Notes under the pieces: model-generated
The model's database searches: none
What the model saw: only the letters and a program-made list of their open reading frames with translations
What the model was told of the DNA's origin: nothing
Program-made: the position numbers and the translations under genes
From: an uncultured virus (IMG/VR IMGVR_UViG_3300003873_000005)
Taxonomy: Duplodnaviria; Heunggongvirae; Uroviricota; Caudoviricetes
Reading direction: 5' to 3' (one strand)
DNA: 64,000 nt
IMG/VR virus record: IMGVR_UViG_3300003873_000005
Shown: piece by piece, positions 4,057 to 32,200 of the stretch
Position numbering within the stretch: the first letter of the stretch is position 1
Layout: each line of letters opens with the position of its first letter

Positions 4057-4057
4057 A

Positions 4058-5468: not shown

Positions 5469-5849
5469 ATGCTAGATAAAATTTATACAAGCTATTATGC
5501 TAATATAAAAAAGATTCCAAAAGAATATACTTTAATCTCGATTAGTCGATTTGCACCAAAATGGCTTAGCAATGTCAAAAGTCATGGTAAAATACTCTCA
5601 GATAAAACTTTGGCTCCATTGAGCTCTATATTAACAAAATATAAGAAGGATTACAATGAAAAGGACTATGTAAAAAGTTTTAGTCTACAAATGGAGGGTA
5701 TAGACTGGATAGCGAAAGCTAATCAATTTAATGCTTTAGATGGAGTAGCTGTGCTATTATGTTATGAAAAGCCAGAAGAATTTTGTCATAGACATCTAAT
5801 AGCTAAAGAATTCGAAAAGTGTTTTAGTTTTAAAATAGAGGAGCTGTAG
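5469..5849 (+). CDS. DUF488-like protein
   Basis: YTSYYAN...ISISR..P.W...LAP...LLCYEKP..FCHRHLIA. Confidence 0.75.
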   Translation: MLDKIYTSYYANIKKIPKEYTLISISRFAPKWLSNVKSHGKILSDKTLAPLSSILTKYKKDYNEKDYVKSFSLQMEGIDWIAKANQFNALDGVAVLLCYEKPEEFCHRHLIAKEFEKCFSFKIEEL

Positions 5850-6248: not shown

Positions 6249-7112
6249 GAAGACAGGTAAGATAGTTCAAGCTTATGATTTTGGCGGACCGGATGTTATA
6301 AAAGTACAAGATATTTTTGTATATGGTGATAAACATCACAACATGACTAGTTATACAAAAACAGTAGATACTTTAACCTTAGAACCTATAGGTGAGTCTA
6401 TTAGTCTAGCCAAAGGTATCTGGGAGATAGTCTCACGTTCAAATATTAATACCTGTAACTATAGGATTACAATTAAAATAACTTTACTGGTGAGTTAAAA
6501 TCCGGGGTCTATCCATTTAATCTACATGGTAAGGTTTATCAGTTACCCTGTCCAGACGGCTCTGGTGCATGGGTCATGGCCAGCTGTGGTGGTTATTCTA
6601 TTGAGTCATCTTGGTTTGGTCAGCACAATGGAGAATGTTATAGACTAAAGGGTACTGGTGAGATATTAGGTTTTTTTGTACTTAAATGTAATCTAATATT
6701 ACACAGAGATGTCTATATTCCCGCCGGTGATTTATGGCCTAACGATCCAACTGAAAGGGTTAAAGCTCTATGGGCAGAAGTACGGTCCATGTCCATACCC
6801 ACAAATGCTCCAAACTATGTACCTAGTAACTTTAGTCTTAGTGTTTATACAAATAAATTAGGCGATATTTCTCCGTTGGGTTCAGGAACACCAAGTACTT
6901 GTAATTATTTTAAGCTCTATAAAACAAATTTACTAAATACATCTTTTTCAGGTGATCTATCAGATAATGCTAATAATAAATTTAATAATGGTTTTAGAGC
7001 TGTAGTTACTGGGGCCAAAACAAATATACACTTAAGTTTTAAAAATTATACCTGTGATGGTTATTCTGCATACCCAGAATACTCTATTAAGGCCAATATT
7101 ATGTTTAGTTAA
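6229..7112 (+). pseudogene. frameshifted paralog of 20047-20991 (constant N-domain plus variable C-domain)
   Basis: One extra A at 6475-6478 restores KNNFTGELKSGVYPFNLHGKVYQLPCPDG, matching KNSFTGEVKSGVYPFNLQGKVYQLPCPDG in the paralog. Confidence 0.85.
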
Positions 7113-7143
7113 AAAGTTCCATGTTAAATACTTTGTATATAAT
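7111..7143 (+). promoter_or_regulatory. promoter AAG-N13-ACTT-N4-TATAAT
   Basis: AAAAAG-13 nt-ACTT-tgta-TATAAT; same spacing as four other intergenic sites. Confidence 0.7.
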
Positions 7144-7191
7144 TATAATATCAATAAATGATTATTGAAATATAACTCTTAGGAGAAAATT

Positions 7192-7407
7192 ATGAATGTA
7201 TCAAAAGTTGCTGCAATGGCATTGTCAAGTGTAGGAAGTCAAACAGGTGTAAAAAATGTAACTAAACCTTATGATAAAAAGTATAAACAGTCTAAAGCAG
7301 CTGGTATGAGAAGCAAGCAATATCAATTTCCAGATAAAGAAAAGTTAGCTGATGGTAGACACAGATTTTATTTAAAAAATGGTTTTTTAATCCAACGTGG
7401 AGTATAG
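7192..7407 (+). CDS. small basic hypothetical protein
   Basis: Strong AGGAG RBS. Confidence 0.7.
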   Translation: MNVSKVAAMALSSVGSQTGVKNVTKPYDKKYKQSKAAGMRSKQYQFPDKEKLADGRHRFYLKNGFLIQRGV

Positions 7408-10544: not shown

Positions 10545-10796
10545 TTGAATATATTTGAACTTTGTCCTAAAGGCTATACTAATGGCGAAAACTGTAAAAA
10601 ATTAATCTGTCATTACAAAGATACTTCAGGGCATTGTTCACTTATAAAAGCTACAGAAGATAGAGAATATTCAATAGAAGAAATAGCTACAATTTTACAA
10701 ATATCAAGACATCGAGTTTGGAGAATATATAACAATGTCTTGGATAAACTACGTAACGGAGTCTATAAAGATAGACTTAAAGAAACTAAAAAATAA
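10545..10796 (+). CDS. Cys-rich N-terminus plus sigma70 region-4.2-like HTH
   Basis: YSIEEIATILQISRHRVWRIYNNVLDKLR matches the pattern TLEEIG..L.VSRERVRQIE..AL.KLR; four Cys in the N-terminal part. Confidence 0.7.
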   Translation: MNIFELCPKGYTNGENCKKLICHYKDTSGHCSLIKATEDREYSIEEIATILQISRHRVWRIYNNVLDKLRNGVYKDRLKETKK

Positions 10797-14572: not shown

Positions 14573-15118
14573 GTGAAAAATATTTATAATAGACAAGTTA
14601 AGTTCCAAAAAGTCATGAAAACAAATTATGATATAATGTATTTAGCTTTAATTGAAGAACTTGGAGAACTTGTAGCAAGTTTTGGCTATTCAGATTGGAA
14701 ACAAACTGTTAGAGATGAAGATAACATAAGAATTGAAGCTATGGATATATGTATATTTGCAATTAATTGCCATTACTATTTAAATAGAAGATATTCAGCT
14801 ACACAAGGAGTATTAACTAATCTTATAATCTCTGATATACAGTTAATTAAACAAATTCAAACTTTAATAGCTAATGATAAATACTTAGAAATAGTGGCTT
14901 TAATCTTTGCAATTTATCCAGATGTAAAAACTAATATAATTGGTAAACAGGCTTTAAATACTTTTAGACAAGATAATGGGTATAAACTTGGAACATATAA
15001 AAAGCTTTGGAATGGCCAAGAAGATAATGTAACAATGCTAGAGTATGTAAAAAATAACCTAAACGCTACTTTTGAGGATATCTATACTTACTTATCTGAG
15101 ACTTACGCAAGTTTATAA
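14573..15118 (+). CDS. dut: dimeric (all-alpha) dUTPase, possibly also dCTPase
   Basis: EELGEL...WK...E..D..IF and KQALNTFRQDNGYK.GTY.K.WNG.EDN, the Campylobacter-type C-terminal motif. Confidence 0.85.
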   Translation: MKNIYNRQVKFQKVMKTNYDIMYLALIEELGELVASFGYSDWKQTVRDEDNIRIEAMDICIFAINCHYYLNRRYSATQGVLTNLIISDIQLIKQIQTLIANDKYLEIVALIFAIYPDVKTNIIGKQALNTFRQDNGYKLGTYKKLWNGQEDNVTMLEYVKNNLNATFEDIYTYLSETYASL

Positions 15119-18018: not shown

Positions 18019-19463
18019 TGGCTACTTTAAAACTCACACCTTTTGATTATCAACTAGAAGATGCAAAATTCATACTCTCAGATAAGCGCGTAGGTATTTT
18101 ACATGAACCTGGAGTTGGTAAAACATTCGGAGTGCTTATAGCTGCTGTATATTTAGCTGAAAAGAAAAATATACAAACTTTAGTAGTTGTTCCTCCTATA
18201 TTAATAGAGGAATGGCTAGACAAAGCCAATGCCTATTTTAATCATAGATTAAATATTGTTACTTATCAAGGAACTCCTAAAGTAAGAAAAGCTTATAATC
18301 TGGCAAAGGCTGATATCGTAATTTGTTCCTATAACATATTAATGAGAGAAGGTTATAACTGTAAAAATAGTATCTATTCTAGAATGCCTAGATTAAATTT
18401 TTTAGTAGCAGATGAAACTAAATTCATTAAAAACCCTAAATCAAAAGCCTTTAAAACTTTTCAGTCTATAAAACATAGAACAGATTATGTAGCTTTAATG
18501 AATGGTACTCCAGTAGTTAAAAATCCAGGAGATTTATTTGTTATAATTCAGCTAATAAATCCTAATAGGTATGTTACACAGAAAAATTTTATGCATCATC
18601 ATGCTATATATTCAAAAAATACTGAGGGTTTTCCTATTGTTATTGGGTGGAAAAATTTAGATGATATCAAGAGCTTTTTAAACTATAGTTGTAGAAGGCT
18701 GTTAAAAAAAGATGTTCTTGATTTACCGCCTAAGCAACTTATTATTAAACAATTTTCACTGGAGCAGAAACATTATGATAGACTAAAAACTTATTGGGAT
18801 ACTGGTTTAATAGAACTAACTAATAATGGTATAGACTTAGTAAATAGGCCAACTGAAGTTATTTTTGACCAAGCAATGTCTTTAGCTATGAAAGTAAGAC
18901 AAGCTTTATTTGACCCTAGTATTTTAGGTTTAGATACAGAGTCTGTATATTTCGAACATTTAGAATTACTAATAGATAGTTTAGGAGATGAGCAATTAAT
19001 AATATTTACTCATTTTCAAAATACACTGGCTTTAGTTAAAAAATTGCTGGACAAAAAAGGCCTATCCTACGGTGAAATACACGGTAAAATAACTAGACCA
19101 GTTAAAGAAAAGGCTAAAAAAGACTTTAAATCAGGAAAAGTCCAACTACTTATTGGTAATCCAAAAAGTATGGGTGTAGGCTTAGATTTTCAAAATTGTC
19201 ATAATATGGCCTTCTTTGAATTGGACTATGAAGTGGATTCTTTTTGGCAAGGCCAAGATAGGTTACATAGACCAGGACAATTACATAGTGTAAATTACTA
19301 TGTATTTATAGCTAAAAAGACTATAGCTGTCGATTTAATGAAGTCAATAATGACAAATGCTAATTTTGTAAAGAAGTTACTCAATAAAGAGTCTAGTTCT
19401 GAATTTTTTAATTCTAGTATAACTGAAGATGAGGTAAAAATATGGCAAAACAAAATGAATTAG
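18018..19463 (+). CDS. SNF2-family helicase
   Basis: GVGKT, ADE...IKN, GTPV, GVGLDFQ, QDRLHRPGQ. Confidence 0.92.
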   Translation: MATLKLTPFDYQLEDAKFILSDKRVGILHEPGVGKTFGVLIAAVYLAEKKNIQTLVVVPPILIEEWLDKANAYFNHRLNIVTYQGTPKVRKAYNLAKADIVICSYNILMREGYNCKNSIYSRMPRLNFLVADETKFIKNPKSKAFKTFQSIKHRTDYVALMNGTPVVKNPGDLFVIIQLINPNRYVTQKNFMHHHAIYSKNTEGFPIVIGWKNLDDIKSFLNYSCRRLLKKDVLDLPPKQLIIKQFSLEQKHYDRLKTYWDTGLIELTNNGIDLVNRPTEVIFDQAMSLAMKVRQALFDPSILGLDTESVYFEHLELLIDSLGDEQLIIFTHFQNTLALVKKLLDKKGLSYGEIHGKITRPVKEKAKKDFKSGKVQLLIGNPKSMGVGLDFQNCHNMAFFELDYEVDSFWQGQDRLHRPGQLHSVNYYVFIAKKTIAVDLMKSIMTNANFVKKLLNKESSSEFFNSSITEDEVKIWQNKMN

Positions 19464-20038
19464 ATAAAATAGAAATAGTAGCACCAGATATTTTAGTTAC
19501 AACTCACCTATATATAGCGACCTACCTAGCTCGTAAATATTCAAGAAGCAGTGCACCCTTTGATGATTTATACCAAGAAGGTTGTATAGGTCTAATAAAA
19601 GCTAGTACTAAATTTGATCCCTCTAAAGGATTTAAATTTTCTACTTATGCTACTTGGTGGGTAAAGCAAGCAATATTTAGTAGTCTAACCTCTAGTACTA
19701 GAACAATACGTTTGCCTAGTCATATAGTACAATTAAAATTAAAACTATTTAAATATAGTGAGTATTATATAAATGAGTTTGGAAAAGAACCAAGTGTAAA
19801 AATACTGGCCGAGCATCTAGAAATACCTATTGAAAAGGTAGTCAAGTTAAAGAATTTACAACTAGAAGTAGACCTTGAAGACTTTGAGACATTTATAACT
19901 TCTAAGGATGAAACAGCCTTAGATCTATTAGAACAAGAAGAAGATAGAAAAGATATAATAGCCAGCTTAAGTAATCTTACTATAAAAGAAAAAGTAGTTA
20001 TAGGTTTACAGTATGGAATACTGAGTAAAATTAAATAG
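19442..20038 (+). CDS. sigma70-like factor (regions 2-3 and 4.1; lacks 4.2 HTH)
   Basis: DLYQEGCIGLIKA..KFDPSKGFKFSTYATWWVKQAI...RTIRLP; ends LTIKEKVVIGLQYGILSKIK*. Confidence 0.9.
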   Translation: MAKQNELDKIEIVAPDILVTTHLYIATYLARKYSRSSAPFDDLYQEGCIGLIKASTKFDPSKGFKFSTYATWWVKQAIFSSLTSSTRTIRLPSHIVQLKLKLFKYSEYYINEFGKEPSVKILAEHLEIPIEKVVKLKNLQLEVDLEDFETFITSKDETALDLLEQEEDRKDIIASLSNLTIKEKVVIGLQYGILSKIK

Positions 20039-20046
20039 GAAATAAA

Positions 20047-20991
20047 ATGAAAAAAGTATTAGATAAAAAAACAGGTGAAATAGTTCATGCTTATGACTTT
20101 GGTGGATCAGATATTGTAAAAGTACCAGGTACGCCGCCAATTTTAGTTTGGGCTGATAAAAGTCAGGAAATAACTAGCTATATTAGGACATATGAATCTT
20201 TAAGTCTAATCCCCTCTGAAGAGTCCATTGAAATAGACAAACCTACTTGGGAAATAGTTTCACATCAAGATATTTCTACCTGTAATTGGAGAGTCACGGT
20301 TAAAAATAGTTTTACTGGAGAAGTAAAATCTGGAGTATATCCTTTTAATCTACAGGGCAAGGTTTATCAACTGCCATGTCCAGATGGCAATGGTCCATGG
20401 GTAATTGCTAGCTGTGGAGGATATAAAATAAAAACAGGTACAGATCCCATATGCTATATTTTAGAGGGTACTGGAGAAACTATATGTAAGCTTAATATAA
20501 GTTATCCATCTAATAATCCATTAGTTTTAACATTTTATATGTCTCATGTAGAACCTGGGCCTGATTCAGGATACATAGAATTAGTCCATGAGGATGGTTG
20601 GTTACCCTATCATTTACTAGATAAATCATACTATCCGAGGGTTTCCACGTCACTTAATCTACCATTTTCTGAACTAGAGGACCAATCACCACCTTATCAT
20701 TGGAAATCTGAGGGGTTTGATAAATTTTGGGAAAAATGCGGTGGTCCGGTTTATCGCGAATGGATTGGTATAACTGGTTCTGGTAAGTCATTTACACTTT
20801 GTTTTTTAACAACTGGTAATCTTGACACTTCTAATTATATATATGGCATACGAAAACAAATCTCTATTTCTATACCGGATTTCAGCCCATTAAATCCATG
20901 GGATTATAAAACAGTATCGAAGTTAGACTATGACCCAGTAAGATTAGGCTATCTAGTTAGATTAGCGCGTATTTGGGGAGAAAATCATTAG
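20047..20991 (+). CDS. hypothetical protein, paralog of 6229-7112
   Basis: About 145-aa shared N-terminal domain; unrelated C-terminus. Confidence 0.8.
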   Translation: MKKVLDKKTGEIVHAYDFGGSDIVKVPGTPPILVWADKSQEITSYIRTYESLSLIPSEESIEIDKPTWEIVSHQDISTCNWRVTVKNSFTGEVKSGVYPFNLQGKVYQLPCPDGNGPWVIASCGGYKIKTGTDPICYILEGTGETICKLNISYPSNNPLVLTFYMSHVEPGPDSGYIELVHEDGWLPYHLLDKSYYPRVSTSLNLPFSELEDQSPPYHWKSEGFDKFWEKCGGPVYREWIGITGSGKSFTLCFLTTGNLDTSNYIYGIRKQISISIPDFSPLNPWDYKTVSKLDYDPVRLGYLVRLARIWGENH

Positions 20992-21041
20992 GTTTTAAAT
21001 CTGAATCTTAAATTTTTAGAGTTTAGCAATAGAATAACAGA

Positions 21042-21074
21042 TTAAAGTATCACTAATAATACTTAGTATATAAT
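21042..21074 (+). promoter_or_regulatory. promoter AAG-N13-ACTT-N4-TATAAT
   Basis: TTAAAG-13 nt-ACTT-agta-TATAAT. Confidence 0.75.
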
Positions 21075-21175
21075 AAATTTAAATAAAGGAGTGAAGATGT
21101 AAGATTAAAAATTGAGAATTAAGAACTGAGATGGCGGTTTAACAATAAAGATAAAAATAAATATAAGGAAAAATT

Positions 21176-21817
21176 ATGGCAAAAACAAAAATAGAAGACA
21201 TGGACTTAGAATCTAAAAAAACAACAAAAACAGACACATCAGTGGTAGACGTAGAGGTGACAGGCAATACAGGAATGGCTGTAAGAGGGACAAATCCATC
21301 TGTATTAGCTAACTTAAATCAAGGCTTTGAAGGTATTGAATCAATTGCAAATTTTATGCCTTACTTTATAGTAGATGGTACAGAGTTGTTAAATAAGATA
21401 ACTGAAGCATCATATAAAAATATAGAAGTTGTTATTACTGGTGGCAAGCCCGTTTGGCAATTATGGAATTTAGACCAAACTTTAGTAGCTGAGAGTTTTG
21501 ATGGCACAGTTTCTACTGAAGGTCAAAATATGCAAGAAGCATTGGCTGAAACAAAAGCTAAATACCCAGGTCAAGAAGAAAAGATTAAGATTCAAGCTAG
21601 ATATGATATTTATTTTGATTGGGATTATCCAGAAGAAGGCACTAAGCTTACAAAAGTATCTTTAAGTCCTTCAAGTAAATATGCTTTTAGTGCTTATTCT
21701 CAAGAATTGGCTAAACAAGGCCTTGGAGTTACCCAAGTAACTACTTCTCTTGGTGCAAAAAGAACTGTGTCTAAACAAGGTTATAGATATAGTGTTGTAA
21801 CTTTTGAAAGAGCCTAA
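21176..21817 (+). CDS. putative ssDNA-binding / replication protein
   Basis: Located in the replication module; beta-rich with LSPSS...F..Y. Function inferred from context. Confidence 0.45.
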   Translation: MAKTKIEDMDLESKKTTKTDTSVVDVEVTGNTGMAVRGTNPSVLANLNQGFEGIESIANFMPYFIVDGTELLNKITEASYKNIEVVITGGKPVWQLWNLDQTLVAESFDGTVSTEGQNMQEALAETKAKYPGQEEKIKIQARYDIYFDWDYPEEGTKLTKVSLSPSSKYAFSAYSQELAKQGLGVTQVTTSLGAKRTVSKQGYRYSVVTFERA

Positions 21818-21818
21818 T

Positions 21819-22214
21819 ATGAATACTATTTCAAAAATAGTTCTAAAAAATCTTCAGCTAAAAGCTGGAGATTTGAATGTACCAGGTAAGCTAGAAAAAT
21901 TATTCATTGCTTATAATAAAATAAATGCTAATTTAGAAGCTTATGCTGATAGTTTAAGTAAAAGTTATAACTGCGGAAATTGTGGAAAACAGAATAGAAG
22001 TGCTATAGTAGAAACAAAAACAGTAATGGCTAATGGCACTACCAGTGTAAAAACAACTAGTCCTTTAGAAGAAGTTAAACAAGAGAAGAATTCAAATTTA
22101 TCGGCTAGAGATATAGAAGAATTTAAACAGGAAAAGAATTTAAATTTAACTCCTAGGGATATAGAGGAAAGAATTAACTATTACACAGCTTTGCAAAGTA
22201 TTAAGGAGAAATAA
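21819..22214 (+). CDS. hypothetical protein
   Basis: CGNCG; duplicated KQEKN.NL..RDIEE segment. Confidence 0.6.
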   Translation: MNTISKIVLKNLQLKAGDLNVPGKLEKLFIAYNKINANLEAYADSLSKSYNCGNCGKQNRSAIVETKTVMANGTTSVKTTSPLEEVKQEKNSNLSARDIEEFKQEKNLNLTPRDIEERINYYTALQSIKEK

Positions 22215-22583
22215 ATGAGCGAAGAGTTTAAAAAAGATTCAATGGTTAATACTAAGTATAAACCATCACTGATTGAGCCTAGCTTTAAAAAAGATTTGGC
22301 TAAGTTGCTAACTTTAGGCGGTATGAAGTATGGTTTTAATAATTGGAAACTAGCCACTAAAGAACAAGTTGTAGAATATAGAGATGCCTTAGAGAGACAT
22401 CTAATAGCCCGTGATAAAGGTGAATACTTGGACAAAGATACTGGTTTGCCACATATAATCTGTGTAGCTTTTAATGTAATGGCTTTGCACTTTTTTGATG
22501 CTAAATTTTTTGACATAAACTTAGATGACTCTATTTGGCAAGAACGGTTAGACTATTACAAGGAGCTTAAAAATGGTAAATAA
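22215..22583 (+). CDS. dATP/dGTP diphosphohydrolase-like (DUF5664) protein
   Basis: L..G..KYG.NNW....Y.DAL.RHL....GE..D.DTGLPH...AFN. Confidence 0.85.
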   Translation: MSEEFKKDSMVNTKYKPSLIEPSFKKDLAKLLTLGGMKYGFNNWKLATKEQVVEYRDALERHLIARDKGEYLDKDTGLPHIICVAFNVMALHFFDAKFFDINLDDSIWQERLDYYKELKNGK

Positions 22584-23310
22584 AATTTTTATTGACACAA
22601 ATAATTATTTGAAAAGAATATACCACGGTGGAGGAGATCCATATAGCTTGTGGATGATGCTATTAAGACGATATGAAACTCAAGAAGTTTTTGTAGTTTG
22701 TGATACGGCTACATCACGACTCTATAGAAAATCTATTAATCCGGATTATAAAAAAGGACGTAAGCAAGATGATGACCCAATTTACTGGGAGCTTTATAAT
22801 AACGCAATAACAATAGCTCGCCATTTTCCCAATATAAAAGTTATTGAAGTAACAGAGGGTGAAGCCGATGATTTTATAGGTTGTAAAGCTTCAAAAAATG
22901 ATACTGTGATTTCTAATGATAAAGACCTTTGGGTATTATTATCTAAAGGAACTAAAATACTTATAAATGCCACTACTCAAGTTGATAGTCAATTAGTGGC
23001 TACAAAATTTGTACATCCTGAGCCTGAGCTAATTACAGTTTATAAATGTTTGGTTGGCGATCCCAGTGATAATATAAAGGGTAAATTTAGATTTGGTGTA
23101 AAAGCCTATGAAAAACTTCCAGTAAAAAGACTACGCAATATTTTAGAGGAGCTTAAGACTAAAAATTATGAAGATGAGCTTATAGATGAAAATGTAAAAC
23201 TAAGCTATGCTATGGTAAAATTTTTTCAAGACTATAAAACAAGGTTCTTAGAGCCTCTAAATTTTAATTTGTTAAATGATTTTATAACTTCAAAAGGAAT
23301 AATATGCTAA
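22573..23310 (+). CDS. 5'-3' exonuclease / flap endonuclease
   Basis: ID.NN, YKKGR, EADD, SNDKDL, LVGDPSDNIKG. Confidence 0.9.
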   Translation: MVNKIFIDTNNYLKRIYHGGGDPYSLWMMLLRRYETQEVFVVCDTATSRLYRKSINPDYKKGRKQDDDPIYWELYNNAITIARHFPNIKVIEVTEGEADDFIGCKASKNDTVISNDKDLWVLLSKGTKILINATTQVDSQLVATKFVHPEPELITVYKCLVGDPSDNIKGKFRFGVKAYEKLPVKRLRNILEELKTKNYEDELIDENVKLSYAMVKFFQDYKTRFLEPLNFNLLNDFITSKGIIC

Positions 23311-25217
23311 TAAGTAATAAGAATATAAATGAAGCAATAGAATTGTTAAAAAAAGATGAAGGTACTATATGGTCTATAGACCTTGAAACTTTTTGTCCAA
23401 TTGATAATTTTCCAGAGATAACTGGTAAAACAAAACCTTTAGATAGATTGAATTCAAAAATAGTTTCTTTGCAAATAACTACTGCTCATCTTCATAATTT
23501 TTATTTTAATTTTGCACACTCAGATGGGGATTTAGACTATTCATGGTTAAAGGTTATCTTTGATCTTAAACAAACAAATACGCATTTAATTGCTCATAAT
23601 TTTAGTTTTGAGTGGACTTTATTATACCTTCATGACGTAGATCTAACTAGATTTACTCTGTGGGACACAATGGTAATGGGCTGGTTAAGAAATGAAAACG
23701 AACAACAAGGTTTAAAATCAAGTATTAAAAAATACTTTAACTACCAGATGGCTACTTATAAAACAACCGTTGGTGATGGTAATATGTCTATGATTACTGG
23801 TGAGGAAGGTTATGCCTATGGTATGGATGATGCTATATGGACATTAAAATTGTTTGACAAGTATTATGCAGAGATTAATACTGATTATTATTTAACTTTT
23901 GATGAGCCTATACTTAAATATATAGCTATGCACTATATAAAAGGTCAAAAAGTTGACATAAGCATTATAAAAGATTTTATTCTAGAGGATGAAATTAAAA
24001 GCCAAAAACTTTTATCTGAATATCCAATATTAAGAGGTTTAAACTTAAATAGTCCAAAGCAAGTAGCTAATTTACTATTTAATGAACTTAGACTACCTCC
24101 AGTTAAAGTATCAAAAAAGACTGGCCAGCCTAGTACGGATAAAGAAACTTTAAATACACTAATTTTAGACCATTCTAAAACAAATCCAGAATTAAAAGCT
24201 TTTGAAGAAATTAGAAAGATTGAAACGAAAAAGAAGCTGTATTATAAACCTTATCCTAAGCTTGTTTATCCTGATGGCAGATGGCATAGCGCGATTAGGC
24301 ATACTGGTACAGTCACTGGTAGATTTAGTATGAGTAGCCCAAATTTGCAACAAATGGCCAAAAGAGGTGATAGTGTTAAAATCAGAAGAGTGATTATTCC
24401 TAATGATAATCATGAATTTGTAATAAGTATTGATTGGTCACAAGTAGAACTTCGTATGGCTGCTCATTTATCCCAAGATCCAAAATTAGTAGATGCTTAT
24501 CTTACTGGAAAAGACTTGCATACAGTATCGGGTACAAACATTTTAAATTGTAGCTATGATGAGATGAAAAAAAGATTAGAAAGTGGTGATTTAGAAGCTA
24601 AAAAGGCTAGACAAAAAGGCAAAACATTGAACTTTGCAGCCTTATATGGCGCAGCCCCGACAAGATTAAGTAAATTTGATTTACTCGATTGTTCTATTGG
24701 AGAAGCTTCTTTCTTTTTACAAGCACATAGAGAAGGCTATAGTGGCTATTTTCATGACTTTGTTAATAAAATATTAAAAGATGCAAAAGAAAAACTCTAT
24801 GTTGAAACTATATTTAAAAGAAAAAGACATCTACCAAATCTTACTTCTCCTTTAAAAGTTTTAAGAATTGATGCAGAACATCAGGCTGTAAATGCAGTAG
24901 TTCAAGGTTCATGTGGAGAAATAATGAAATTAAGTTTTGCCAGACTTGGTAATGAAAATTTATTGTACAATAAAGATTTACAGTTTATTTGCCCTATTCA
25001 TGATGAGTTTGTTTTTTCAGCCTCTAGAGAGGGTGTTCATAAGTATCTAAAAACTATAAAAGAAATAATGGAACTAACTCCAAAAGGCTTTTCAATCCCA
25101 ATTCTGGCCGCTGCATCTGTTGGAGTTAACTTCGCTGATCAAGTAGAAATTGAAGACCTAGATAAACTTGATTATTATATGGATAAAGCTCTAGAATATA
25201 AATCAAAAGGAAATTAA
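23304..25217 (+). CDS. polA: family A DNA polymerase with 3'-5' exonuclease
   Basis: DLET, TGRFSMSSPNLQQ, DWSQVELR, KTLNFAALYG, IHDEF. Confidence 0.95.
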   Translation: MLISNKNINEAIELLKKDEGTIWSIDLETFCPIDNFPEITGKTKPLDRLNSKIVSLQITTAHLHNFYFNFAHSDGDLDYSWLKVIFDLKQTNTHLIAHNFSFEWTLLYLHDVDLTRFTLWDTMVMGWLRNENEQQGLKSSIKKYFNYQMATYKTTVGDGNMSMITGEEGYAYGMDDAIWTLKLFDKYYAEINTDYYLTFDEPILKYIAMHYIKGQKVDISIIKDFILEDEIKSQKLLSEYPILRGLNLNSPKQVANLLFNELRLPPVKVSKKTGQPSTDKETLNTLILDHSKTNPELKAFEEIRKIETKKKLYYKPYPKLVYPDGRWHSAIRHTGTVTGRFSMSSPNLQQMAKRGDSVKIRRVIIPNDNHEFVISIDWSQVELRMAAHLSQDPKLVDAYLTGKDLHTVSGTNILNCSYDEMKKRLESGDLEAKKARQKGKTLNFAALYGAAPTRLSKFDLLDCSIGEASFFLQAHREGYSGYFHDFVNKILKDAKEKLYVETIFKRKRHLPNLTSPLKVLRIDAEHQAVNAVVQGSCGEIMKLSFARLGNENLLYNKDLQFICPIHDEFVFSASREGVHKYLKTIKEIMELTPKGFSIPILAAASVGVNFADQVEIEDLDKLDYYMDKALEYKSKGN

Positions 25218-26048
25218 ATGACAAAATTTGATAAAGTATATAAAGATACTCTTGAGTATGTAATAACTGAAGGAACTAATAGCACGAATAAAAGAACAGG
25301 CTCAACTGTTAGACAAGTTCATGGTTATTCATTTAACTATGATATGAATTTATTACCGAGGTTAAGATTAAGAAAAACCTGGATTAGTTCTGCAGCTGCA
25401 GAGCTAGCCTGGTTTTTATCCGGCACTAAAGATGCCTCATGGATAAATGAAAAAACCAGTATTTGGAGAGAATTTACTGATTCAGAAAATAATATAAATA
25501 CTGCCTATGGCTATAGATGGAGATATAAATGGGGGTATGACCAAGTAGAAAATATAATAATGAAACTTAAGCTCGATAATAGTTCTAGGCAACAAATTTT
25601 ACTCAGTTGGGATCCTGAGGAAGATAATATTAATATAGCCAAGAATATACCTTGTCCATTTGTCTATGTAATAAATATTATAGATAATAAATTAAATATA
25701 CACCTAACTTTAAGGTCAAATGATGCTTGGTTGGGCCTACCTTATGATATAATGACTGCTTGTTTATTAGGAAGAGCATTTGCTAATTCATTGGACGTTA
25801 AATTAGGAAGTTTACATTATTCAGTAGCTAATTTACATTTATATGAAAATCAATTTATAATAGCTAATGAAGCTCTTGATAAATTTAAAGAATATAAAAA
25901 AACAAGCCCTTCTATAGAAATTCAAAATTCTAATTCTTTTAGTATAAATGAAATTAGAATAGACAAAAACACTTATGTAGACTATTTTAAACCTTTTGAT
26001 AAGTATACTTTTTCTGGCTGGACGCCAAGAGTTAATGTGGTCAAATAG
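25218..26048 (+). CDS. thymidylate-synthase homolog with dCMP-type Asp177 (putative dCMP methylase/hydroxymethylase)
   Basis: ELAWFLSG, YG.RWR, SRQ, PC146, R166-SND169, PYD177, H207-LY209. Confidence 0.85.
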   Translation: MTKFDKVYKDTLEYVITEGTNSTNKRTGSTVRQVHGYSFNYDMNLLPRLRLRKTWISSAAAELAWFLSGTKDASWINEKTSIWREFTDSENNINTAYGYRWRYKWGYDQVENIIMKLKLDNSSRQQILLSWDPEEDNINIAKNIPCPFVYVINIIDNKLNIHLTLRSNDAWLGLPYDIMTACLLGRAFANSLDVKLGSLHYSVANLHLYENQFIIANEALDKFKEYKKTSPSIEIQNSNSFSINEIRIDKNTYVDYFKPFDKYTFSGWTPRVNVVK

Positions 26049-26460
26049 TTTCTGGTTAGACTTAGTTGATAAGTTTGCAACTCAAAGTTATGCAAAAAAG
26101 AAAAAAGTAGCCTGTATATTAGTTAAGGATAAACATTTTGTATCTGCAGGAGTAAATGGCACTTTAAAAGGCTTACCTAATAGGTGTGAGGATAAAGATG
26201 GAAAAAGTATGCATGATATAGTAGTACATGCAGAAATGAATGCAATAGCTAATGCAAGCGATAAAAATGATATAAAAGGCTGCACAGCGTACTTAAACTA
26301 TGGCCCATGTGAACATTGTGCAAAAACTCTATTACAATTTGGTATAAAAGCCTTACATATTAGAGGAGATATAAAATATACTCAAGTGGTTCAAACTTGT
26401 ATAGATTATTTAGGAGAAAATAATGTTAAAATTGAAACTAAAAACAAAAAATACAGTTAG
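26035..26460 (+). CDS. dCMP deaminase
   Basis: G.NG, HAEMNAI, PCEHCAK; probable start at ATG26035. Confidence 0.92.
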   Translation: MWSNSFWLDLVDKFATQSYAKKKKVACILVKDKHFVSAGVNGTLKGLPNRCEDKDGKSMHDIVVHAEMNAIANASDKNDIKGCTAYLNYGPCEHCAKTLLQFGIKALHIRGDIKYTQVVQTCIDYLGENNVKIETKNKKYS

Positions 26461-26662
26461 TGAAAAACAATTTAAAAATCCTTATATAGAAGAAGTTAAG
26501 AAAATGGCAAAAGAACATATAATTGAGTTATGGAAAATTGGATTTATAAGTTTAAAAAATAAAAACCTAGTTGCAGAAAATATCTTAAAGTATAAAGCTT
26601 TAAAAATTATTCTAACTACCAAATTTTGTATAGACTTACCAAAAGATAATTTAAAGGATTAA
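26423..26662 (+). CDS. hypothetical protein
   Basis: AGGAG RBS; lies inside the nucleotide-metabolism cluster. Confidence 0.55.
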   Translation: MLKLKLKTKNTVSEKQFKNPYIEEVKKMAKEHIIELWKIGFISLKNKNLVAENILKYKALKIILTTKFCIDLPKDNLKD

Positions 26663-26663
26663 T

Positions 26664-27134
26664 ATGACAGGTTGTATGTTAGCTGATAAAAACTTCTTCA
26701 TTGCAGATGCAACTGGTAATATCATATCAGGACCTATAGAAGATAAAGCTCGTTTAAGAAAAAGAATAACAGACAAGGTAGTGATTATAGGCTATAATAC
26801 TTGGAAAAAAGATATATCTAACTATCCAAAGCTAATTGCCTTGCCCTCAATATGGCTAGTTATTAGCACTAAATCTTTTAATCCTTATCATTATAATGTC
26901 AAGATAATAAAGCCTAATGAAAAAGATCTTTACAATATAGACTACTGTCTAGGAGGGCCAAAAACATTAGAACTACTAAAACCTTATAAATTGATAATTA
27001 GCCAAATTAATACCACTGAGATATCTTTTGGCTATAAACTAGAAATTAAAGACTATAGTCTAGTCTCTATAGAAGATAAAATAAGCTATAAAGAATTAAC
27101 TTATGAGCTAAAAAAGGATGAAGATGAAAAATGA
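26664..27134 (+). CDS. divergent dihydrofolate reductase-like protein
   Basis: P.ED...R..IT.KVVIIGYNTW...LVIS...LGG pattern of FolA. Confidence 0.65.
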   Translation: MTGCMLADKNFFIADATGNIISGPIEDKARLRKRITDKVVIIGYNTWKKDISNYPKLIALPSIWLVISTKSFNPYHYNVKIIKPNEKDLYNIDYCLGGPKTLELLKPYKLIISQINTTEISFGYKLEIKDYSLVSIEDKISYKELTYELKKDEDEK

Positions 27135-27561
27135 TGGGATGGCCAGTCAAAAAGATTATTTAGACTTATTAAAGGAAGAAATGAAATATGATATAAATTT
27201 TATAGTTCATGAATTTGTAGATACAAGAAAAGCGCGAAACTTTGTTGAGAGTAATCCATCTGATTTTTTTGCATGCTATAAATCTACTCCATGGCTAATA
27301 GAAGTTAAATCTAGTATTGATCTAGCACGTTTTCCTTTAAAGAATATAAAAGGTACTCAGATAGGCCTAGGTAGACGATATATGTTATCTGGATGGAACT
27401 ATATGTTTGTAATCCACCATGTAATATGGGATTTATGGTATTTTGTACCATTTGATTTTATTTATAAAACATATATGAGTAAGAAAAGATCAATTAGTTG
27501 GAAAGATTTAAAACCTTTTACAAAACAAAAAAAATATAAATTTTGGAGTATACATGAGTGA
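27118..27561 (+). CDS. RecU-like Holliday junction resolvase
   Basis: PSDF...IEVKS...FPLKNI...Q PD-(D/E)xK pattern. Confidence 0.7.
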   Translation: MKMKNDGMASQKDYLDLLKEEMKYDINFIVHEFVDTRKARNFVESNPSDFFACYKSTPWLIEVKSSIDLARFPLKNIKGTQIGLGRRYMLSGWNYMFVIHHVIWDLWYFVPFDFIYKTYMSKKRSISWKDLKPFTKQKKYKFWSIHE

Positions 27562-28456
27562 TATAATTATTGGTGATGAACACCTAGATAAGGTTAGAAA
27601 AGTAACCTATGGTAATGCAGATATTTGGAATAATAAACCTTTTGAAATAACTAAAAGTATAATAGACTTTGAAAAGCCCACGAGAATAATTTTTCTTGGT
27701 GATATTTTCGATAAATATAAACCGGATAGTTTATCCACGGTTAAGTTCATTTCTATGATAAAAGACATAGATACTTATATAATAGAAGGCAATCATGATA
27801 GACCAAAAATGAATCAGCCTTACTGTTTTGAAGAGTTAGATACTTTATCAAATATTACTATTATAAAAAGAAATACTATAAGTAATTTTGCACCAAAATT
27901 TTATGGTATAGGCTGGTGTGATACACAAGAAATTTTTGTTTCAAAACTAGAGTTATTACTAGACGAAATTGAAGAGGAAAGTATTCTTTGTTTACACTGT
28001 AATCATAGTGATTGGAGAAATGAGATGGATAATTATATCCCTGAAAATATTATAAATCAGTTTAGTGCTTTAAATGTTACTATTTTTGCAGGTCATGACC
28101 ACAGCCATTTTGCTATTAAAAACTTTATTAGTCTTGGTTCTGTAATCCCAAATAATATAGGAGAAATTGGAGAAAAAAAATATTGGAGTTCAAAAACTGG
28201 GCTTGTTACTATAGATACAAAAGTTGGTAATAGTCTTAAGGATGATGTAATATTACTTAGAAAAGAACCCTTTGATATTGATCCTAATAAGGCTTATTAT
28301 ATAAAAACAAAAAATGCTATAGAACAAGATGACCTAAAACTTGAAGAAAAAAATTTACATATAGATATACTTGAAGATTTTACTACAGAGGCTATTAAAG
28401 CTGGGTTTGACCTAGAGTATGTAAACAAGCACTTAGGAGGCACTGATGATAACTAG
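27554..28456 (+). CDS. SbcD/Mre11-like metallophosphoesterase
   Basis: GDEH, LGDIFD, GNHD, GHDH. Confidence 0.9.
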   Translation: MSDIIIGDEHLDKVRKVTYGNADIWNNKPFEITKSIIDFEKPTRIIFLGDIFDKYKPDSLSTVKFISMIKDIDTYIIEGNHDRPKMNQPYCFEELDTLSNITIIKRNTISNFAPKFYGIGWCDTQEIFVSKLELLLDEIEEESILCLHCNHSDWRNEMDNYIPENIINQFSALNVTIFAGHDHSHFAIKNFISLGSVIPNNIGEIGEKKYWSSKTGLVTIDTKVGNSLKDDVILLRKEPFDIDPNKAYYIKTKNAIEQDDLKLEEKNLHIDILEDFTTEAIKAGFDLEYVNKHLGGTDDN

Positions 28457-30398
28457 AATAATTTTAAATAACTATAGGTCATACAAAAAACTTGATAAGA
28501 ATTTTTCAGACGGCCTGAATGTAATTCAAGGTAGAAATGCCACTGGAAAATCTACAATAGTTGAAGCTATTGGCTATGCTTTACAAGGAAGTTCTTTACA
28601 AAAAGGCGCGGCTACTACCTGGATAAAAAAAGGTGAAACTGTAGGCAGTGTTACTCTTTATATTGATGATTTTGTAATTATTAGAGGAAATAAAAAACAA
28701 ATAGTTAAAGATATTGAAGGGGCTATAGTGGCTCGAGGCCATACTGGAATTAATGAGTGGGTGACTAAAGTCTATGGCTTATCTCCTGAGCTATATAAAA
28801 CTTCTTTTCATATAGCTCAAAAAGAAATTTCAGCCTTTGCTAGTCTTGGTTCAGTAGAAAAAACAAAAAGAGTAGAAAAATTGTTACGTCTTGATATTAT
28901 AGATAAAATAAAGCAAGAAGCTCAATTAAGTAGACGAGATACACTAAGTAAATATACGATAGTAGAATCTATAATGGCCAATATAGTTAATTACACTAAA
29001 CAAGACTTAAAAGATACAAAAGATAGTCTTATTGACCTAGAAACAAAAATAAAAGATCTTAGGCAAGAAGAGCTAAATCAAGCCTCTTTAATATCTGAAT
29101 ATAATTCAAAAGTAGCTTTATACAATAAAAAAATTAGCCTTAAAAAGAGACTTTTAAATAAAAGCTTAACCAAACAAAACTTAAAGGATAAAATACAAGA
29201 AACTGAGGATAAAAAGGCTAAAAATTTAGTTATACTCGCAGATAAAAAGTTATTTAATGAAAAAATAAATTTATTGAATACTTTACAGCATGCAAATATA
29301 CAAGAAAAATATTTCACTAAGTCTTTAGAGCATTGTATGGATCTTAAAAGTAAGATTAAAAATAGCAATTTAGCTGTAGAAAATTTAAAAGAGTATACAG
29401 AAGCTGAATTATCTTGGGCTAAGTCAGCTGATACAGAAAAAGATCTAAATAGTTTAAAAGTAGAAATATTAGATCTAGATAGAAGAATAAAAACCTTAAA
29501 AGCTAAACCTACTACTTGCCCTACTTGTGGACAAACTATGCCTGATATACACGAACTACCAAAAGAAATAAGTATACTAGAGCTTAAAAAGGAAGAGCTG
29601 TCTACAAAATTTGTAAAAAAAGAAAAAAGATTTGAAATAACTAGGCTTAAAGAGTCTATATTTAAGACTAAATATACCTTAGAAGATATAAGTATAATGT
29701 TAAATTCTATAAAGTTAAAAGATAAGTATCTAAGATTACAAGAGTTAAAAGATGTAGAAGAACCTAAAGAACAATTGGTTAGTGATAGCTATTTAGACAG
29801 TACTATATTAGATTTTAAGCACGACTTAAGTATTAAAGAGAGACTAGAAGAATATAAAGATATAAGTTTACCAAAGCCTATACAAGTTAAAAAATTTAGC
29901 CAAATCATAGAAGATTTAACTGCAAAAGAACATGAACTAAATAAAAAGCTTAATTCTATAGAACAAAGTATAGAGACTAAAAAGAAAAATGCTTCTTTAC
30001 TAGAAGAACTAACAAAAGATAAAGACCTAATAGAAGACTTTATAAAATTTATTGCTAGTTATAGGAACGCCTTTAGTTCTAAAATAGTACCTATGATAGA
30101 AGAAAATGCAAATAAAATTGTAAATTATCTATCCGAAGGTAAAATAAAGAAACTTAGCCTTGAAAACTCCTATTCTATTAGAGATTATGACTTGTATAGT
30201 GGTGCAGAAGAAGATTCAGCTAACTTTGCTTTAAGATTGGCTATTGCTCAAATATCTAGACTTGGCAGTTATAATACTATTATACTAGATGAAATAGCCT
30301 CAAGTTACGATTCTATAAGAGAAGATAGACTTATGGACGTATTAAAATCTACAGATATGCAAATAATTTATATCTCACATGGAGATGTAAATTATTAA
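28446..30398 (+). CDS. SbcC/Rad50-like ATPase
   Basis: GRNATGKS, CPTCG zinc hook, SGAE, ILDE, ISH. Confidence 0.93.
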   Translation: MITRIILNNYRSYKKLDKNFSDGLNVIQGRNATGKSTIVEAIGYALQGSSLQKGAATTWIKKGETVGSVTLYIDDFVIIRGNKKQIVKDIEGAIVARGHTGINEWVTKVYGLSPELYKTSFHIAQKEISAFASLGSVEKTKRVEKLLRLDIIDKIKQEAQLSRRDTLSKYTIVESIMANIVNYTKQDLKDTKDSLIDLETKIKDLRQEELNQASLISEYNSKVALYNKKISLKKRLLNKSLTKQNLKDKIQETEDKKAKNLVILADKKLFNEKINLLNTLQHANIQEKYFTKSLEHCMDLKSKIKNSNLAVENLKEYTEAELSWAKSADTEKDLNSLKVEILDLDRRIKTLKAKPTTCPTCGQTMPDIHELPKEISILELKKEELSTKFVKKEKRFEITRLKESIFKTKYTLEDISIMLNSIKLKDKYLRLQELKDVEEPKEQLVSDSYLDSTILDFKHDLSIKERLEEYKDISLPKPIQVKKFSQIIEDLTAKEHELNKKLNSIEQSIETKKKNASLLEELTKDKDLIEDFIKFIASYRNAFSSKIVPMIEENANKIVNYLSEGKIKKLSLENSYSIRDYDLYSGAEEDSANFALRLAIAQISRLGSYNTIILDEIASSYDSIREDRLMDVLKSTDMQIIYISHGDVNY

Positions 30399-32200
30399 TA
30401 TGTAATTGGTATATTAGGGTCTAAATAGCCCTGATATACAGCATAAGCATACGCTTCACTAGTAATTAACCACTTAACTTTATCAGCATATATATTATAG
30501 GCAGTTATAAAGTCGTTCATATCTAAACTTGTATGATCTATAGAAGGTATAAAATTGTTAATAAATCTATACTCAACCGTTATTAAAGAAGATCCATCTG
30601 AATTATTATGTATAATCATATCTTTATACCTACAAGGAGCTAATTTTTCTGAAATATTACCAGTCATATTTTGAGATAAAATTTTTGTCCAATCAAAAGT
30701 CATAGAAGATACCCCTGGAAATATCTGCATAACTTGACCTGCATCTAAATCTATTTTAGATAGATTACTGGCTTCAACAGGAGAAAAATTTAAAAACTTT
30801 GTAGCTATATAATATAGAACATTTATTGTTTTTTCTATATCTGTAAAGTCTGCATTAACTCTATAAGCCTTCGGAGTAAAATAATCATAAATATTAAATA
30901 AGACTACACTTATATCAACGCCATCTGTATAAGAGTCTTTAAACTTACCTACAAGATTGCCCTTAGAATACAAACTGTATTTAGTTATAGGCATTTGTGT
31001 ATACATAAAATCATTATAACCAGCCTCCATAGTCGGTGCTTGCGTATAACTTAAAGAACTACAATCCTTACAAGGGTCACCAAGGATATACTCCGGTACA
31101 CAACCAAAATCAGTACAGATCTCACCTTGTGCACAGCTAGAATTTATAGTTAATTTATCAGATGGAACTTTAAAAATATCACTTAGAGTAAAACATGGGC
31201 CAATTTCTTTGCCATTATATAGTACTTTTTGACAAGCTTTTATATATTGCCCATCGTTAACTTCTTCTGGGTCATAACATTTAGTATCTTTTGGAAAACA
31301 GCCAAAATCAGTACAAATGTTATCTTGCATACAAGTGTTACCTATAGTTATTTCAGTAGGGTTAACTTTAAATGGTTTTATTGTGTCAAAACAAGAAGGA
31401 ATAGTAAGACCTTTATACTGGGCAAGTTGGCAATCTAATAAATAACTATCAGTTACATCTGGTAGTTCTTCATAACAGGGGGTACTAGGACACTGCTTAA
31501 AAGTACTTGGATCAAGAGTATAGTTTGCCCAGCCTTTAGGTGTTTTTAATAAGAATGTGAAAGGACTAGGAATAGTAAAAATTAATTTTTGAGCATCTGT
31601 ACAAGTGCTTAAAAGTGCATTTGGAATACTAAATAGAGGCGAAAATACTGCATTATCTTTATAGCTAGTATTTTCATAATAAGGGTTATTTATAGCTATT
31701 TTATTGGTTGTTATATCATAGCAATCAATTAGACTTAAAAAATCATCTAGATCTATATCTCTTTTAAACTTCCATTTAGGATCTGTAATTAAATCTAGAT
31801 TATTATCAGTTATAGGGTTATAAGTTTCTGGATAATCTAAACAGTCTTGACTATAAGTATCACAAATGGCTAAATGGCTTTCTGGAATTATACTTATTCG
31901 TCTATACTTACCAGCTTTTAAGACTAACTTTAAACCTGTAGCTGTATTAGAAAGATTTAAAACTAGTTTAAAATCAGTTATAGAAGCCTCAATATCTATA
32001 TCCACTGCACTAAGTTCAAAGGCACTGTTATATACTGTTTTAGTCTCTTTGTTGTACTGAGTTTCAAAAGAATATGGATTATGTAATACTAGTTTATTGG
32101 CCTTTTTATTATAACATTCTATAATATTGGTTAAAAAAGTAGCGTACGTTAGCTTACATTGTTCTTGTTTTACCAGTTCTACTCCTGAATATTCAGTCAT
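30395..32200 (-). CDS. Cys-rich virion-associated protein with internal duplications
   Basis: Duplicated C..ICTDFGC.P and I.CY....NK....NPY segments; last gene of the late arm. Confidence 0.6.
   Translation of the reverse strand: MTEYSGVELVKQEQCKLTYATFLTNIIECYNKKANKLVLHNPYSFETQYNKETKTVYNSAFELSAVDIDIEASITDFKLVLNLSNTATGLKLVLKAGKYRRISIIPESHLAICDTYSQDCLDYPETYNPITDNNLDLITDPKWKFKRDIDLDDFLSLIDCYDITTNKIAINNPYYENTSYKDNAVFSPLFSIPNALLSTCTDAQKLIFTIPSPFTFLLKTPKGWANYTLDPSTFKQCPSTPCYEELPDVTDSYLLDCQLAQYKGLTIPSCFDTIKPFKVNPTEITIGNTCMQDNICTDFGCFPKDTKCYDPEEVNDGQYIKACQKVLYNGKEIGPCFTLSDIFKVPSDKLTINSSCAQGEICTDFGCVPEYILGDPCKDCSSLSYTQAPTMEAGYNDFMYTQMPITKYSLYSKGNLVGKFKDSYTDGVDISVVLFNIYDYFTPKAYRVNADFTDIEKTINVLYYIATKFLNFSPVEASNLSKIDLDAGQVMQIFPGVSSMTFDWTKILSQNMTGNISEKLAPCRYKDMIIHNNSDGSSLITVEYRFINNFIPSIDHTSLDMNDFITAYNIYADKVKWLITSEAYAYAVYQGYLDPNIPITY

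Follow-up and report, generated by a model that had tools for sequence, protein, structure and literature searches.

A predicted Xp12-type cytosine-methylation cassette in an AT-rich, long-tailed uncultured phage

Results

A thymidylate synthase homologue is encoded with a deaminase and a divergent dihydrofolate reductase

We analyzed a stretch of 64,000 nucleotides (hereafter, the window) from an uncultured virus of the Caudoviricetes (IMG/VR record IMGVR_UViG_3300003873_000005), and in particular positions 25218-27134, where a homologue of thymidylate synthase (TS) is followed by a zinc deaminase, a small open reading frame (ORF) and a highly divergent dihydrofolate reductase (DHFR), all on the plus strand (Table 1). 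In addition to its Pfam match, the TS homologue matched phrog_160 (E = 1.1e-57); its best solved relatives were ThyA proteins (E = 9e-28), and canonical ThyA also was the best solved-structure match for its AlphaFold2 (AF2) model (predicted local distance difference test score, pLDDT, 92.5). The dCMP deaminase that an original prediction for this locus had placed over the end of the TS gene was confirmed: its likely start is ATG 26035, giving a 14-nt overlap, and its best solved relative is the phage dCMP deaminase 4p9c (E = 3.8e-15). The same prediction had a FolA-like ORF following the deaminase gene. This ORF is a DHFR by family profile and predicted fold, but it does not follow directly, as the 79-amino acid (aa) ORF lies in between.

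Table 1. Features of the cassette and of the surrounding window
Feature	Position	Strand	Details
TS-fold enzyme, predicted deoxycytidylate C5-methyltransferase (dCMP to 5-methyl-dCMP)	25218..26048	+	276 aa; PF00303, E = 1.1e-49
N143-I144-P145-C146-P147, catalytic Cys signature common to Xp12	25644-25658	+	AAT ATA CCT TGT CCA, read from the DNA
Asp177, pyrimidine-specificity position (Asn in dUMP enzymes)	25746-25748	+	codon GAT, read from the DNA
dCMP/CMP-family zinc deaminase (HAE and PCxxC motifs)	26035..26460	+	PF00383, E = 3e-18; phrog_174, E = 2.1e-30; ORF open from TTG 25996
Small conserved ORF between deaminase and DHFR	26423..26662	+	79 aa; no Pfam, PHROG or NCBIfam match
Highly divergent dihydrofolate reductase	26664..27134	+	family profile and predicted fold
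Family A DNA polymerase	23304..25217	+	PF00476, E = 8.6e-79; directly upstream of the TS homologue
RecU-like Holliday-junction resolvase/nuclease	27118..27561	+	phrog_843, E = 1.4e-13; downstream of DHFR
MazZ-like all-alpha NTP pyrophosphohydrolase, candidate dCTPase	22215..22583	+	PF18909, E = 2.4e-20; predicted substrate
Dimeric dUTPase/dCTPase-family protein	14573..15118	+	PF08761, E = 3.4e-8; NF049964, E = 1.7e-20, below cut-off
Tape-measure protein, single ORF	44353-56043	-	3896 aa; PF10145, E = 1e-24, residues 1924-2106

Alignment to E. coli K-12 ThyA bore out the residue numbering used in the original prediction, with R21, E58, W80, Y94, C146, R166, S167, D169, G173, H207 and Y209 having the same numbers in both proteins. 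The TS fold together with C146, E58, R166, S167, D169, H207 and Y209 places the protein in the TS family. Two departures from ThyA that had been pointed out, a GLPYD motif with Asp177 and a proline in place of His147, both were correct when read from the DNA, where Y176-D177 is encoded by TAT GAT at 25743-25748. N177D is reported to give specificity for dCMP, and residues 177 and 147 to be the best discriminators between modified and unmodified metavirome contigs (PMC8670742). Asp177 was retained in 27/27 aligned relatives and in 118 of 119 database homologues, and the alignment confirmed the claim that the T4 dCMP hydroxymethylase (gp42) carries Asp at the equivalent position. Besides lacking the Asn177 and His147 of canonical ThyA, the TS homologue scored below all NCBIfam ThyA equivalog cut-offs (best 135 bits vs 327). 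Its C-terminal tail (...GWTPRVNVVK) aligned with the tails of the Xp12 (...YNPKPEVIE) and E. coli (...IKAPVAI) proteins and is without a counterpart in T4 gp42.

The nearest record (G001, with the locus L001 at about 6445-7211 of G001:C1) equals the window sequence (25800-26100) minus clean deletions of 41, 17 and 37 nt that break the TS and deaminase genes. These deletions probably arose in assembly or in the record, not in the phage itself, and we did not take them as evidence of a broken gene.

The TS homologue has the active-site signature of the Xp12 enzyme

A study of TS homologues has linked position 143 to the type of reaction, a hydrophobic residue going with methylation and an acidic one (Asp or Glu) with hydroxymethylation, and identified D169N as the mark of 5-hydroxy-dCMP synthases (PMC13326640). 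The T4 dCMP hydroxymethylase is described as lacking the TS C-terminal tail, which seals the site for hydride transfer, as using Asp145 (143 in E. coli numbering) to activate water, and as releasing tetrahydrofolate (THF) rather than dihydrofolate (PMC6400193). We therefore compared the window protein with a set of reference enzymes comprising those of Xp12, PaMx74, DoCa5, JWX, ZQG1 and RcSimone-Hastad, T4 gp42, gp48 and td of RB69, td of FelixO1, the Epseptimavirus (T5-related) TS of phage LVR16A, Bacillus phage TS, and SPO1-like and ViI-like homologues. For Xanthomonas phage Xp12, the GenBank record MT664984 was used, which holds a PRA-PH hydrolase, the TS homologue (QNN97214), a dCMP deaminase (QNN97213) and a DHFR (QNN97212).

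The 119 database homologues fell cleanly into two signatures, plus one protein with N177. The first signature (50/119), to which the window, Xp12 and PaMx74 enzymes belong, combines D177, F83 and a C-terminal tail with N143 (49/50) and P147 (48/50). The second (68/119) has D143, T147 and D177 and no tail, like T4 gp42. At positions 143 and 147, the window has N143/P147, compared to D143/T147 in T4 gp42 and L143/H147 in E. coli ThyA. The window protein matches the Xp12 enzyme at N143, P147, L165, Y176, D177 and D169, and across the 12 residues within 6 Å of C5 (list from PMC13326640), it is identical to Xp12 at 11, to T4 gp42 at 8 and to E. coli ThyA at 6. The features of a hydroxymethylase, an acidic residue at position 143 and the loss of the tail, were not found, given that the window enzyme has N143 and a tail while all 68 homologues of the second signature and T4 gp42 have D143. 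Nor was the Asn at position 169 of 5-hydroxy-dCMP synthases present, as the window enzyme has D169 in the alignment that shows N169 for RB69 gp48.

These groupings were reproduced in a careful IQ-TREE run with 77 rows, for which the tool flagged long branches for T4 gp42 and RB69 gp48. The 56 rows with the N143/P147 signature formed one clade (support 97/87), and the smallest clade containing both the window and Xp12 enzymes, with PaMx74 also inside, comprised 45 rows (100/98). The hydroxymethylase and hydroxylase references (T4 gp42, RB69 gp48, SPO1-like and ViI-like) formed a separate 16-row clade (93/89). Thus, in the tree of ThyA, T4 gp42 and phage dCMP methylases that the original prediction had proposed as a check, the window protein groups with Xp12 and PaMx74, outside both the hydroxymethylases and canonical ThyA.

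The ORF downstream of the 79-aa ORF encodes a divergent DHFR

By itself, the protein encoded at 26664-27134 matched neither PF00186 nor any other Pfam family, PHROG or PDB sequence, and phmmer against the PDB gave no DHFR. BLASTP gave no significant match to the DHFRs of Xp12 or PaMx74, and a word-based search for homologues recovered nothing beyond the query. An exhaustive HMMER search, however, found 13 relatives. In the family alignment, D27, G43, T46, G97 and G98 were invariant in 13/13 members, residues that in the DHFR fold are the catalytic Asp (D27), two positions that bind NADPH (G43 and T46) and the Gly-Gly motif. A profile of the family searched against the PDB (E up to 10) gave 59 matches, all of them DHFRs, alone or in fusion constructs (best E = 0.0038), with D27 placed on the Asp of the ADLAW motif (Asp27 of E. 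coli DHFR). PF00186 was matched by 4 of the 13 members (best 1.6e-4). The AF2 model of the window protein (pLDDT 91.9) had DHFR as its top Foldseek matches (E = 3.9e-10, TM 0.74-0.77). Because the invariant residues, the profile matches in the PDB, the PF00186 matches of members and the AF2 model settle its identity, we conclude that the ORF encodes a very divergent but real DHFR by fold, which is predicted to be active as such.

DHFR is linked to the N143/P147/D177 signature but not to D143/T147/D177

The genes for TS, deaminase and DHFR occur in this order in Xp12, PaMx74, DoCa5, ZQG1 and RcSimone-Hastad, while JWX has TS and deaminase genes without DHFR. To these the window adds its own deaminase and DHFR genes in cis. 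A scan of IMG/VR with the single TS protein found nothing, but an alignment-based scan found 36 related loci, all of them with N143/P147/D177; 31 had TS, deaminase and DHFR, one had TS and DHFR, and four had TS only. The order seen in the window (exonuclease, polymerase, TS, deaminase, divergent DHFR, RecU-like nuclease, SbcD) is repeated in four of the five closest loci, each with the polymerase gene preceding TS, and three of these four (L020, L021 and L024) have a homologue of the 79-aa ORF at the same place. The fifth, L023, shows only TS, DHFR and deaminase, in that order. A small nuclease gene also is found 3´ of DHFR, directly or after one small ORF, in ZQG1, RcSimone-Hastad, L020, L021, L022 and L024.

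As a control, 80 loci with D143/T147/D177 were examined using hidden Markov models (HMMs). DHFR was detected at 0/80, and a deaminase within 6 kb at 17/80; a Pfam scan of 150 ORFs flanking the first 23 of these loci likewise gave no DHFR_1 match. The difference (32/36 vs 0/80) corresponds to a Fisher p of 1.5e-24, a value that overstates independence because the loci come from related phages. The argument of the original prediction that methylation, unlike hydroxymethylation, goes with a DHFR was upheld by this control. Finally, four relatives rated complete each have one ThyA-family gene and no ThyX. Therefore, no dUMP-dependent thymidylate synthase is encoded by these phages.

The control loci gave two side observations. 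In 8 of the 23 scanned loci (among L060-L074), a gene of the PF18748 5-hydroxymethyl-dU (5-hmdU) DNA kinase family lies within 3 kb of the D177 TS homologue, which suggests post-replicative hypermodification of 5-hydroxymethylcytosine in those phages. At two loci, the D143/T147/D177 TS homologue is followed, at a distance of about 1 kb, by a gene for a Mom-family protein (PF25680, E = 2.4e-44; L078, 7682-8353; L079, 5976-6647), and these phages appear to combine two different base-modification systems.

The deaminase is a candidate 5-methyl-dC nucleotide deaminase

The window deaminase, a dCMP_cyt_deam_1 domain protein encoded next to a D177 TS homologue as are the deaminases of the mSCD type, was 26-33% identical to the deaminases of Xp12, PaMx74, JWX, DoCa5, ZQG1 and RcSimone. 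The mSCD-B5 deaminase is reported to prefer 5-methyl-dCTP (5mdCTP) in vitro, to act less on the 5-hydroxymethyl derivative (5hmdCTP) and barely on dCTP, and to have no activity on dCMP or 5mdCMP (preprint 10.1101/2024.12.05.627091). By analogy, the window protein is a candidate for deamination of 5-methyl-dC nucleotides.

Nucleotide-pool genes and other features of the window

The G+C content of the window is about 30%. Replication and nucleotide metabolism are served by a block of plus-strand genes that reaches to about 30.4 kb, and the minus-strand genes beyond it are structural. The block encodes, in order, DNA ligase, the dimeric dUTPase-family protein, primase, an SNF2 helicase, a sigma factor, the MazZ-like NTP pyrophosphohydrolase, a 5´-3´ exonuclease and the family A polymerase, followed by the cassette, the RecU-like nuclease and SbcCD. 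Both the MazZ-like protein and the dimeric dUTPase-family protein, whose Pfam family also is matched by the T4 gp56 dCTPase/dUTPase, might supply dCMP. In Xp12-type phages, a PRA-PH NTP pyrophosphohydrolase is encoded just upstream of TS in 6/6 cases checked, adjacent in five and one gene removed in JWX. PF18909 corresponds to the N-terminal part of MazZ-type dATP/dGTP diphosphohydrolases; as Pfam detected no PurZ-like adenylosuccinate synthetase in the window, the protein probably is not serving a diaminopurine pathway here.

A Pfam scan covered 67 window proteins, namely the 79-aa ORF and ORFs of at least 80 aa, apart from about 10 listed ORFs that overlap a longer one, in most cases from the opposite strand. 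Among these proteins there was no glycosyltransferase, deoxynucleoside monophosphate (dNMP) kinase or hydroxymethyl-pyrimidine DNA kinase, which for the first two agrees with the original prediction. A Walker-A search of the unassigned ORFs for a dNMP kinase gave one motif, late in ORF 20047-20991, that was unconvincing as a kinase.

The source is an uncultured, siphovirus-like, long-tailed phage. Its tape-measure protein is of exceptional length and implies a very long tail; an N4-like virion RNA polymerase as the identity of this ORF was rejected, given its match to the tape-measure family PF10145. Megablast with window positions 20000-32000 found no near-identical DNA in cultured phages, and the polymerase was at most 28% identical to that of any cultured phage. 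Among public sequencing runs, only two, both of one sample that probably is the source, contained this DNA, in the form of contigs, which cannot show base modification. With respect to the host, no tRNAs were found as a clue, a scan of genome contigs returned only two contigs of metagenome-assembled genomes (MAGs), which were taken as phage DNA binned with the MAGs, and a match to the 'dUTPaseEpsil' model (73 bits vs a cut-off of 300) was too weak for an assignment. A remark in the original prediction about ThyX use in Campylobacter and Helicobacter presupposes a host, and nothing in the analysis establishes one.

Three further observations concern genes outside the cassette. Two adjacent Kelch-repeat beta-propeller proteins are encoded in the early region, at 2872-4056 and 4040-5110 on the plus strand (PF24681, E about 1e-39 each). 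A 126-aa protein at 5469-5849 (plus strand) matches DUF488-N3a (PF22751, E = 3.8e-8) and phrog_2450. A sigma-70-family factor with regions 2 and 3 is encoded at 19442-20038 and, separately, a small region 4-like helix-turn-helix protein at 10545-10796, both on the plus strand.

Discussion

Given that the sequence, tree and context tests all speak for an Xp12-type methylase and against a hydroxymethylase, we consider it probable that positions 25218-27134 constitute an Xp12-type cytosine-replacement cassette, which would yield DNA containing 5-methylcytosine (5mC) and thymine made from 5-methyl-dC nucleotides. The dCMP methylase proposed in the original prediction thus is supported. The Xp12 TS homologue and five of seven deaminase-linked D177 TS homologues are reported to have made 5-methyl-deoxycytidine (5mdC) in vivo, cytosine to be entirely replaced by 5mC in Xp12 and PaMx74, and 104/149 deaminases on modified contigs, compared to 17/277 on unmodified ones, to lie within 3 kb of a TS gene (preprint 10.1101/2024.12.05.627091). 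The original prediction offered 5mC-containing DNA and a route to dTMP as alternatives. The two are not alternatives, as both at once have been proposed for Xp12-type phages (preprint 10.1101/2024.12.05.627091).

In the pathway we propose, dCTP would be converted to dCMP by one or both of the NTP pyrophosphohydrolases encoded at 22215-22583 and 14573-15118. The TS homologue very likely binds dCMP via Asp177, as argued by its sequence, phylogeny and gene context, and would use Cys146 and 5,10-methylene-THF for reductive methylation at C5, giving 5-methyl-dCMP and dihydrofolate, from which the DHFR, divergent in sequence but clear in fold, would regenerate THF. Kinases would raise 5-methyl-dCMP to the triphosphate for the phage polymerase to insert 5mC in place of C, with protection from restriction as the expected result. 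By analogy with Xp12 and mSCD-B5, the deaminase may turn part of the 5-methyl-dC nucleotide pool, as mono- or triphosphate, into dT nucleotides, in which case the phage would need no dUMP-dependent thymidylate synthase.

The closest known counterpart is the module of Xp12 and the Pamexviruses (PaMx74, AXL1). It shares with the window the six matching TS residues and the tail, 11 of the 12 residues around C5, a common clade (100/98), the order of TS, deaminase and DHFR, an NTP pyrophosphohydrolase upstream and a small nuclease downstream. Pamexvirus AXL1 has the same four genes, and its DNA is reported to resist restriction enzymes with G/C in their sites (PMC9206674). The window differs in that its TS homologue is 30.7% identical to that of PaMx74 and belongs to a sister subclade characterized by N168 and Q127, its DHFR comes from a separate, very divergent family without a Pfam match of its own, its pyrophosphohydrolase is of the MazZ-like PF18909 family instead of PRA-PH and is encoded two genes further upstream, and its deaminase and DHFR genes are separated by a 79-aa ORF. 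In addition, the phage backbone is unrelated, and the G+C content is 30% compared to the 67% reported for AXL1 (PMC9206674). The metavirome D177 TS homologues with a deaminase in cis found by MetaGPA (Yang et al., 2021, PMC8670742; preprint 10.1101/2024.12.05.627091) likewise are described with Asp177, a residue other than His at 147, a deaminase within 3 kb, and a polymerase and NTP pyrophosphohydrolase nearby. E. coli ThyA and phage td proteins, which gave the best structural and sequence matches, share the catalytic residues, nearly the same numbering and, we expect, a reductive methylation that yields dihydrofolate. The window enzyme differs from them by Asn177 to Asp, His147 to Pro, Leu143 to Asn and Gln165 to Leu.

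A dCMP hydroxymethylase like T4 gp42, giving DNA with 5-hydroxymethylcytosine or a derivative, is an improbable alternative. The window enzyme has in common with gp42 (PDB ternary complex described in PMC6400193) the TS fold, the catalytic Cys and the cytosine-recognizing Asp at the position of Asp177; its polar Asn143 could in principle hold a water, and two of the seven tested D177 enzymes are reported without 5mdC (preprint 10.1101/2024.12.05.627091). Yet where T4 gp42 has D143, T147, M165 and V83, the window has N143, P147, L165 and F83, and it lacks the Asp or Glu143 found in T4 gp42, RB69 gp48 and 68/68 homologues of the second signature. It also has kept the tail that is absent from the deoxycytidylate hydroxymethylase (PMC6400193), and lies in a different clade. 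Since the hydroxymethylase releases THF and needs no DHFR, the presence of DHFR at 32/36 loci of the window type but 0/80 D143-type loci argues against this activity, as does the lack of a glycosyltransferase or hydroxymethyl-pyrimidine DNA kinase among the window proteins scanned with Pfam. It is still less probable that the enzyme makes some other C5-modified dCMP peculiar to this AT-rich lineage, for instance 5-hydroxy-dCMP or one bearing a group not yet described. TS homologues recently were shown to make unexpected products, among them 5-hydroxy-dCMP (PMC13326640), and the window subclade differs from that of Xp12 at positions 127 and 168, but the diagnostic D169N is absent, D169 being retained, and the linkage to DHFR favors a dihydrofolate-producing reaction.

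Two further explanations concern thymidylate. If the 5-methyl-dCMP were fully deaminated to dTMP, the cassette would serve only as a thymidylate bypass and the virion DNA would have ordinary cytosine. We regard this as unlikely, even though no 5-methyl-dCMP kinase was recognized in the window, the deaminase gene is translationally coupled to that of the TS homologue, and the complete relatives have no other thymidylate synthase, given that D177 TS genes with an adjacent deaminase are strongly enriched on metavirome contigs selected for modified cytosine, that Xp12 and PaMx74 have 5mC for C with the same cassette, and that the one deaminase described as characterized in vitro was inactive on 5mdCMP (preprint 10.1101/2024.12.05.627091). 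The restriction resistance of AXL1 DNA (PMC9206674) points the same way. Alternatively, an ordinary or dual-specificity thymidylate synthase could make dTMP from dUMP supplied by the deaminase, and the set of deaminase, TS and DHFR does correspond to the classical cd, td, frd pathway, the annotation given in AXL1 (PMC9206674), with a fold closest to canonical ThyA. This explanation is highly improbable, as Asp177 replaces the Asn that specifies dUMP in every clade member, His147 is replaced as well, the NCBIfam score is far under all ThyA equivalog cut-offs, and the Xp12 homologue makes 5mdC (preprint 10.1101/2024.12.05.627091).

Several points nonetheless weigh against an Xp12-type methylation cassette. 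Homology and context carry the whole case. The window enzyme is no more than 31-36% identical to PaMx74, DoCa5 and the other Xp12-type enzymes listed, Xp12 itself having been compared only in multiple alignments; position 168, where the window subclade has N168 (with Q127) and the Xp12 subclade S168 (with R127), is an active-site residue; and Asn143 is polar, not the bulky hydrophobic residue of the published methylation rule. Two of seven D177 enzymes gave no 5mdC, and the 5mC selectivity of deaminases is described as polyphyletic and without a sequence rule (preprint 10.1101/2024.12.05.627091). The window DHFR taken singly has no significant DHFR sequence match, neither Pfam nor the Walker-A search recognized a dNMP kinase for 5-methyl-dCMP in the window, and, as the window is part of a genome, a second TS elsewhere is excluded only by analogy with the relatives. 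Because of the N168/Q127 subclade, the orphan DHFR family, the MazZ-type pyrophosphohydrolase that replaces PRA-PH and the 79-aa ORF in the cassette, there is also a small chance that this divergent lineage behaves unlike Xp12, having a dUMP-independent thymidylate pathway at the monophosphate level with partial or no 5mC, or being a source of a sequence-distinct 5mC-selective deaminase and a trimethoprim-insensitive type of DHFR.

The system was already known in outline from work on Xp12, the biochemistry of which dates from the 1970s (as cited in preprint 10.1101/2024.12.05.627091), from the MetaGPA studies and from Pamexvirus genomes, and our finding is a confirmation and extension rather than a discovery. 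New here are an AT-rich siphovirus lineage whose tape measure is giant, an orphan DHFR family, the replacement of PRA-PH by a MazZ-type protein and an explicit control for DHFR co-occurrence. The control gives a practical rule, namely that N143/P147/D177 travels with DHFR and D143/T147/D177 does not. Both the deaminase and the orphan DHFR family might find use as reagents, one example being 5mC-selective deamination in methylome sequencing. If the Xp12-type assignment is true, 5mC would occupy all or most C positions of the phage DNA, and many restriction enzymes would be blunted, affecting the sequencing, cloning and detection of such phages. The range of the Xp12-type cassette then would extend from high-GC phages of Pseudomonadota to a distant siphovirus lineage with 30% G+C and a very long tape measure.

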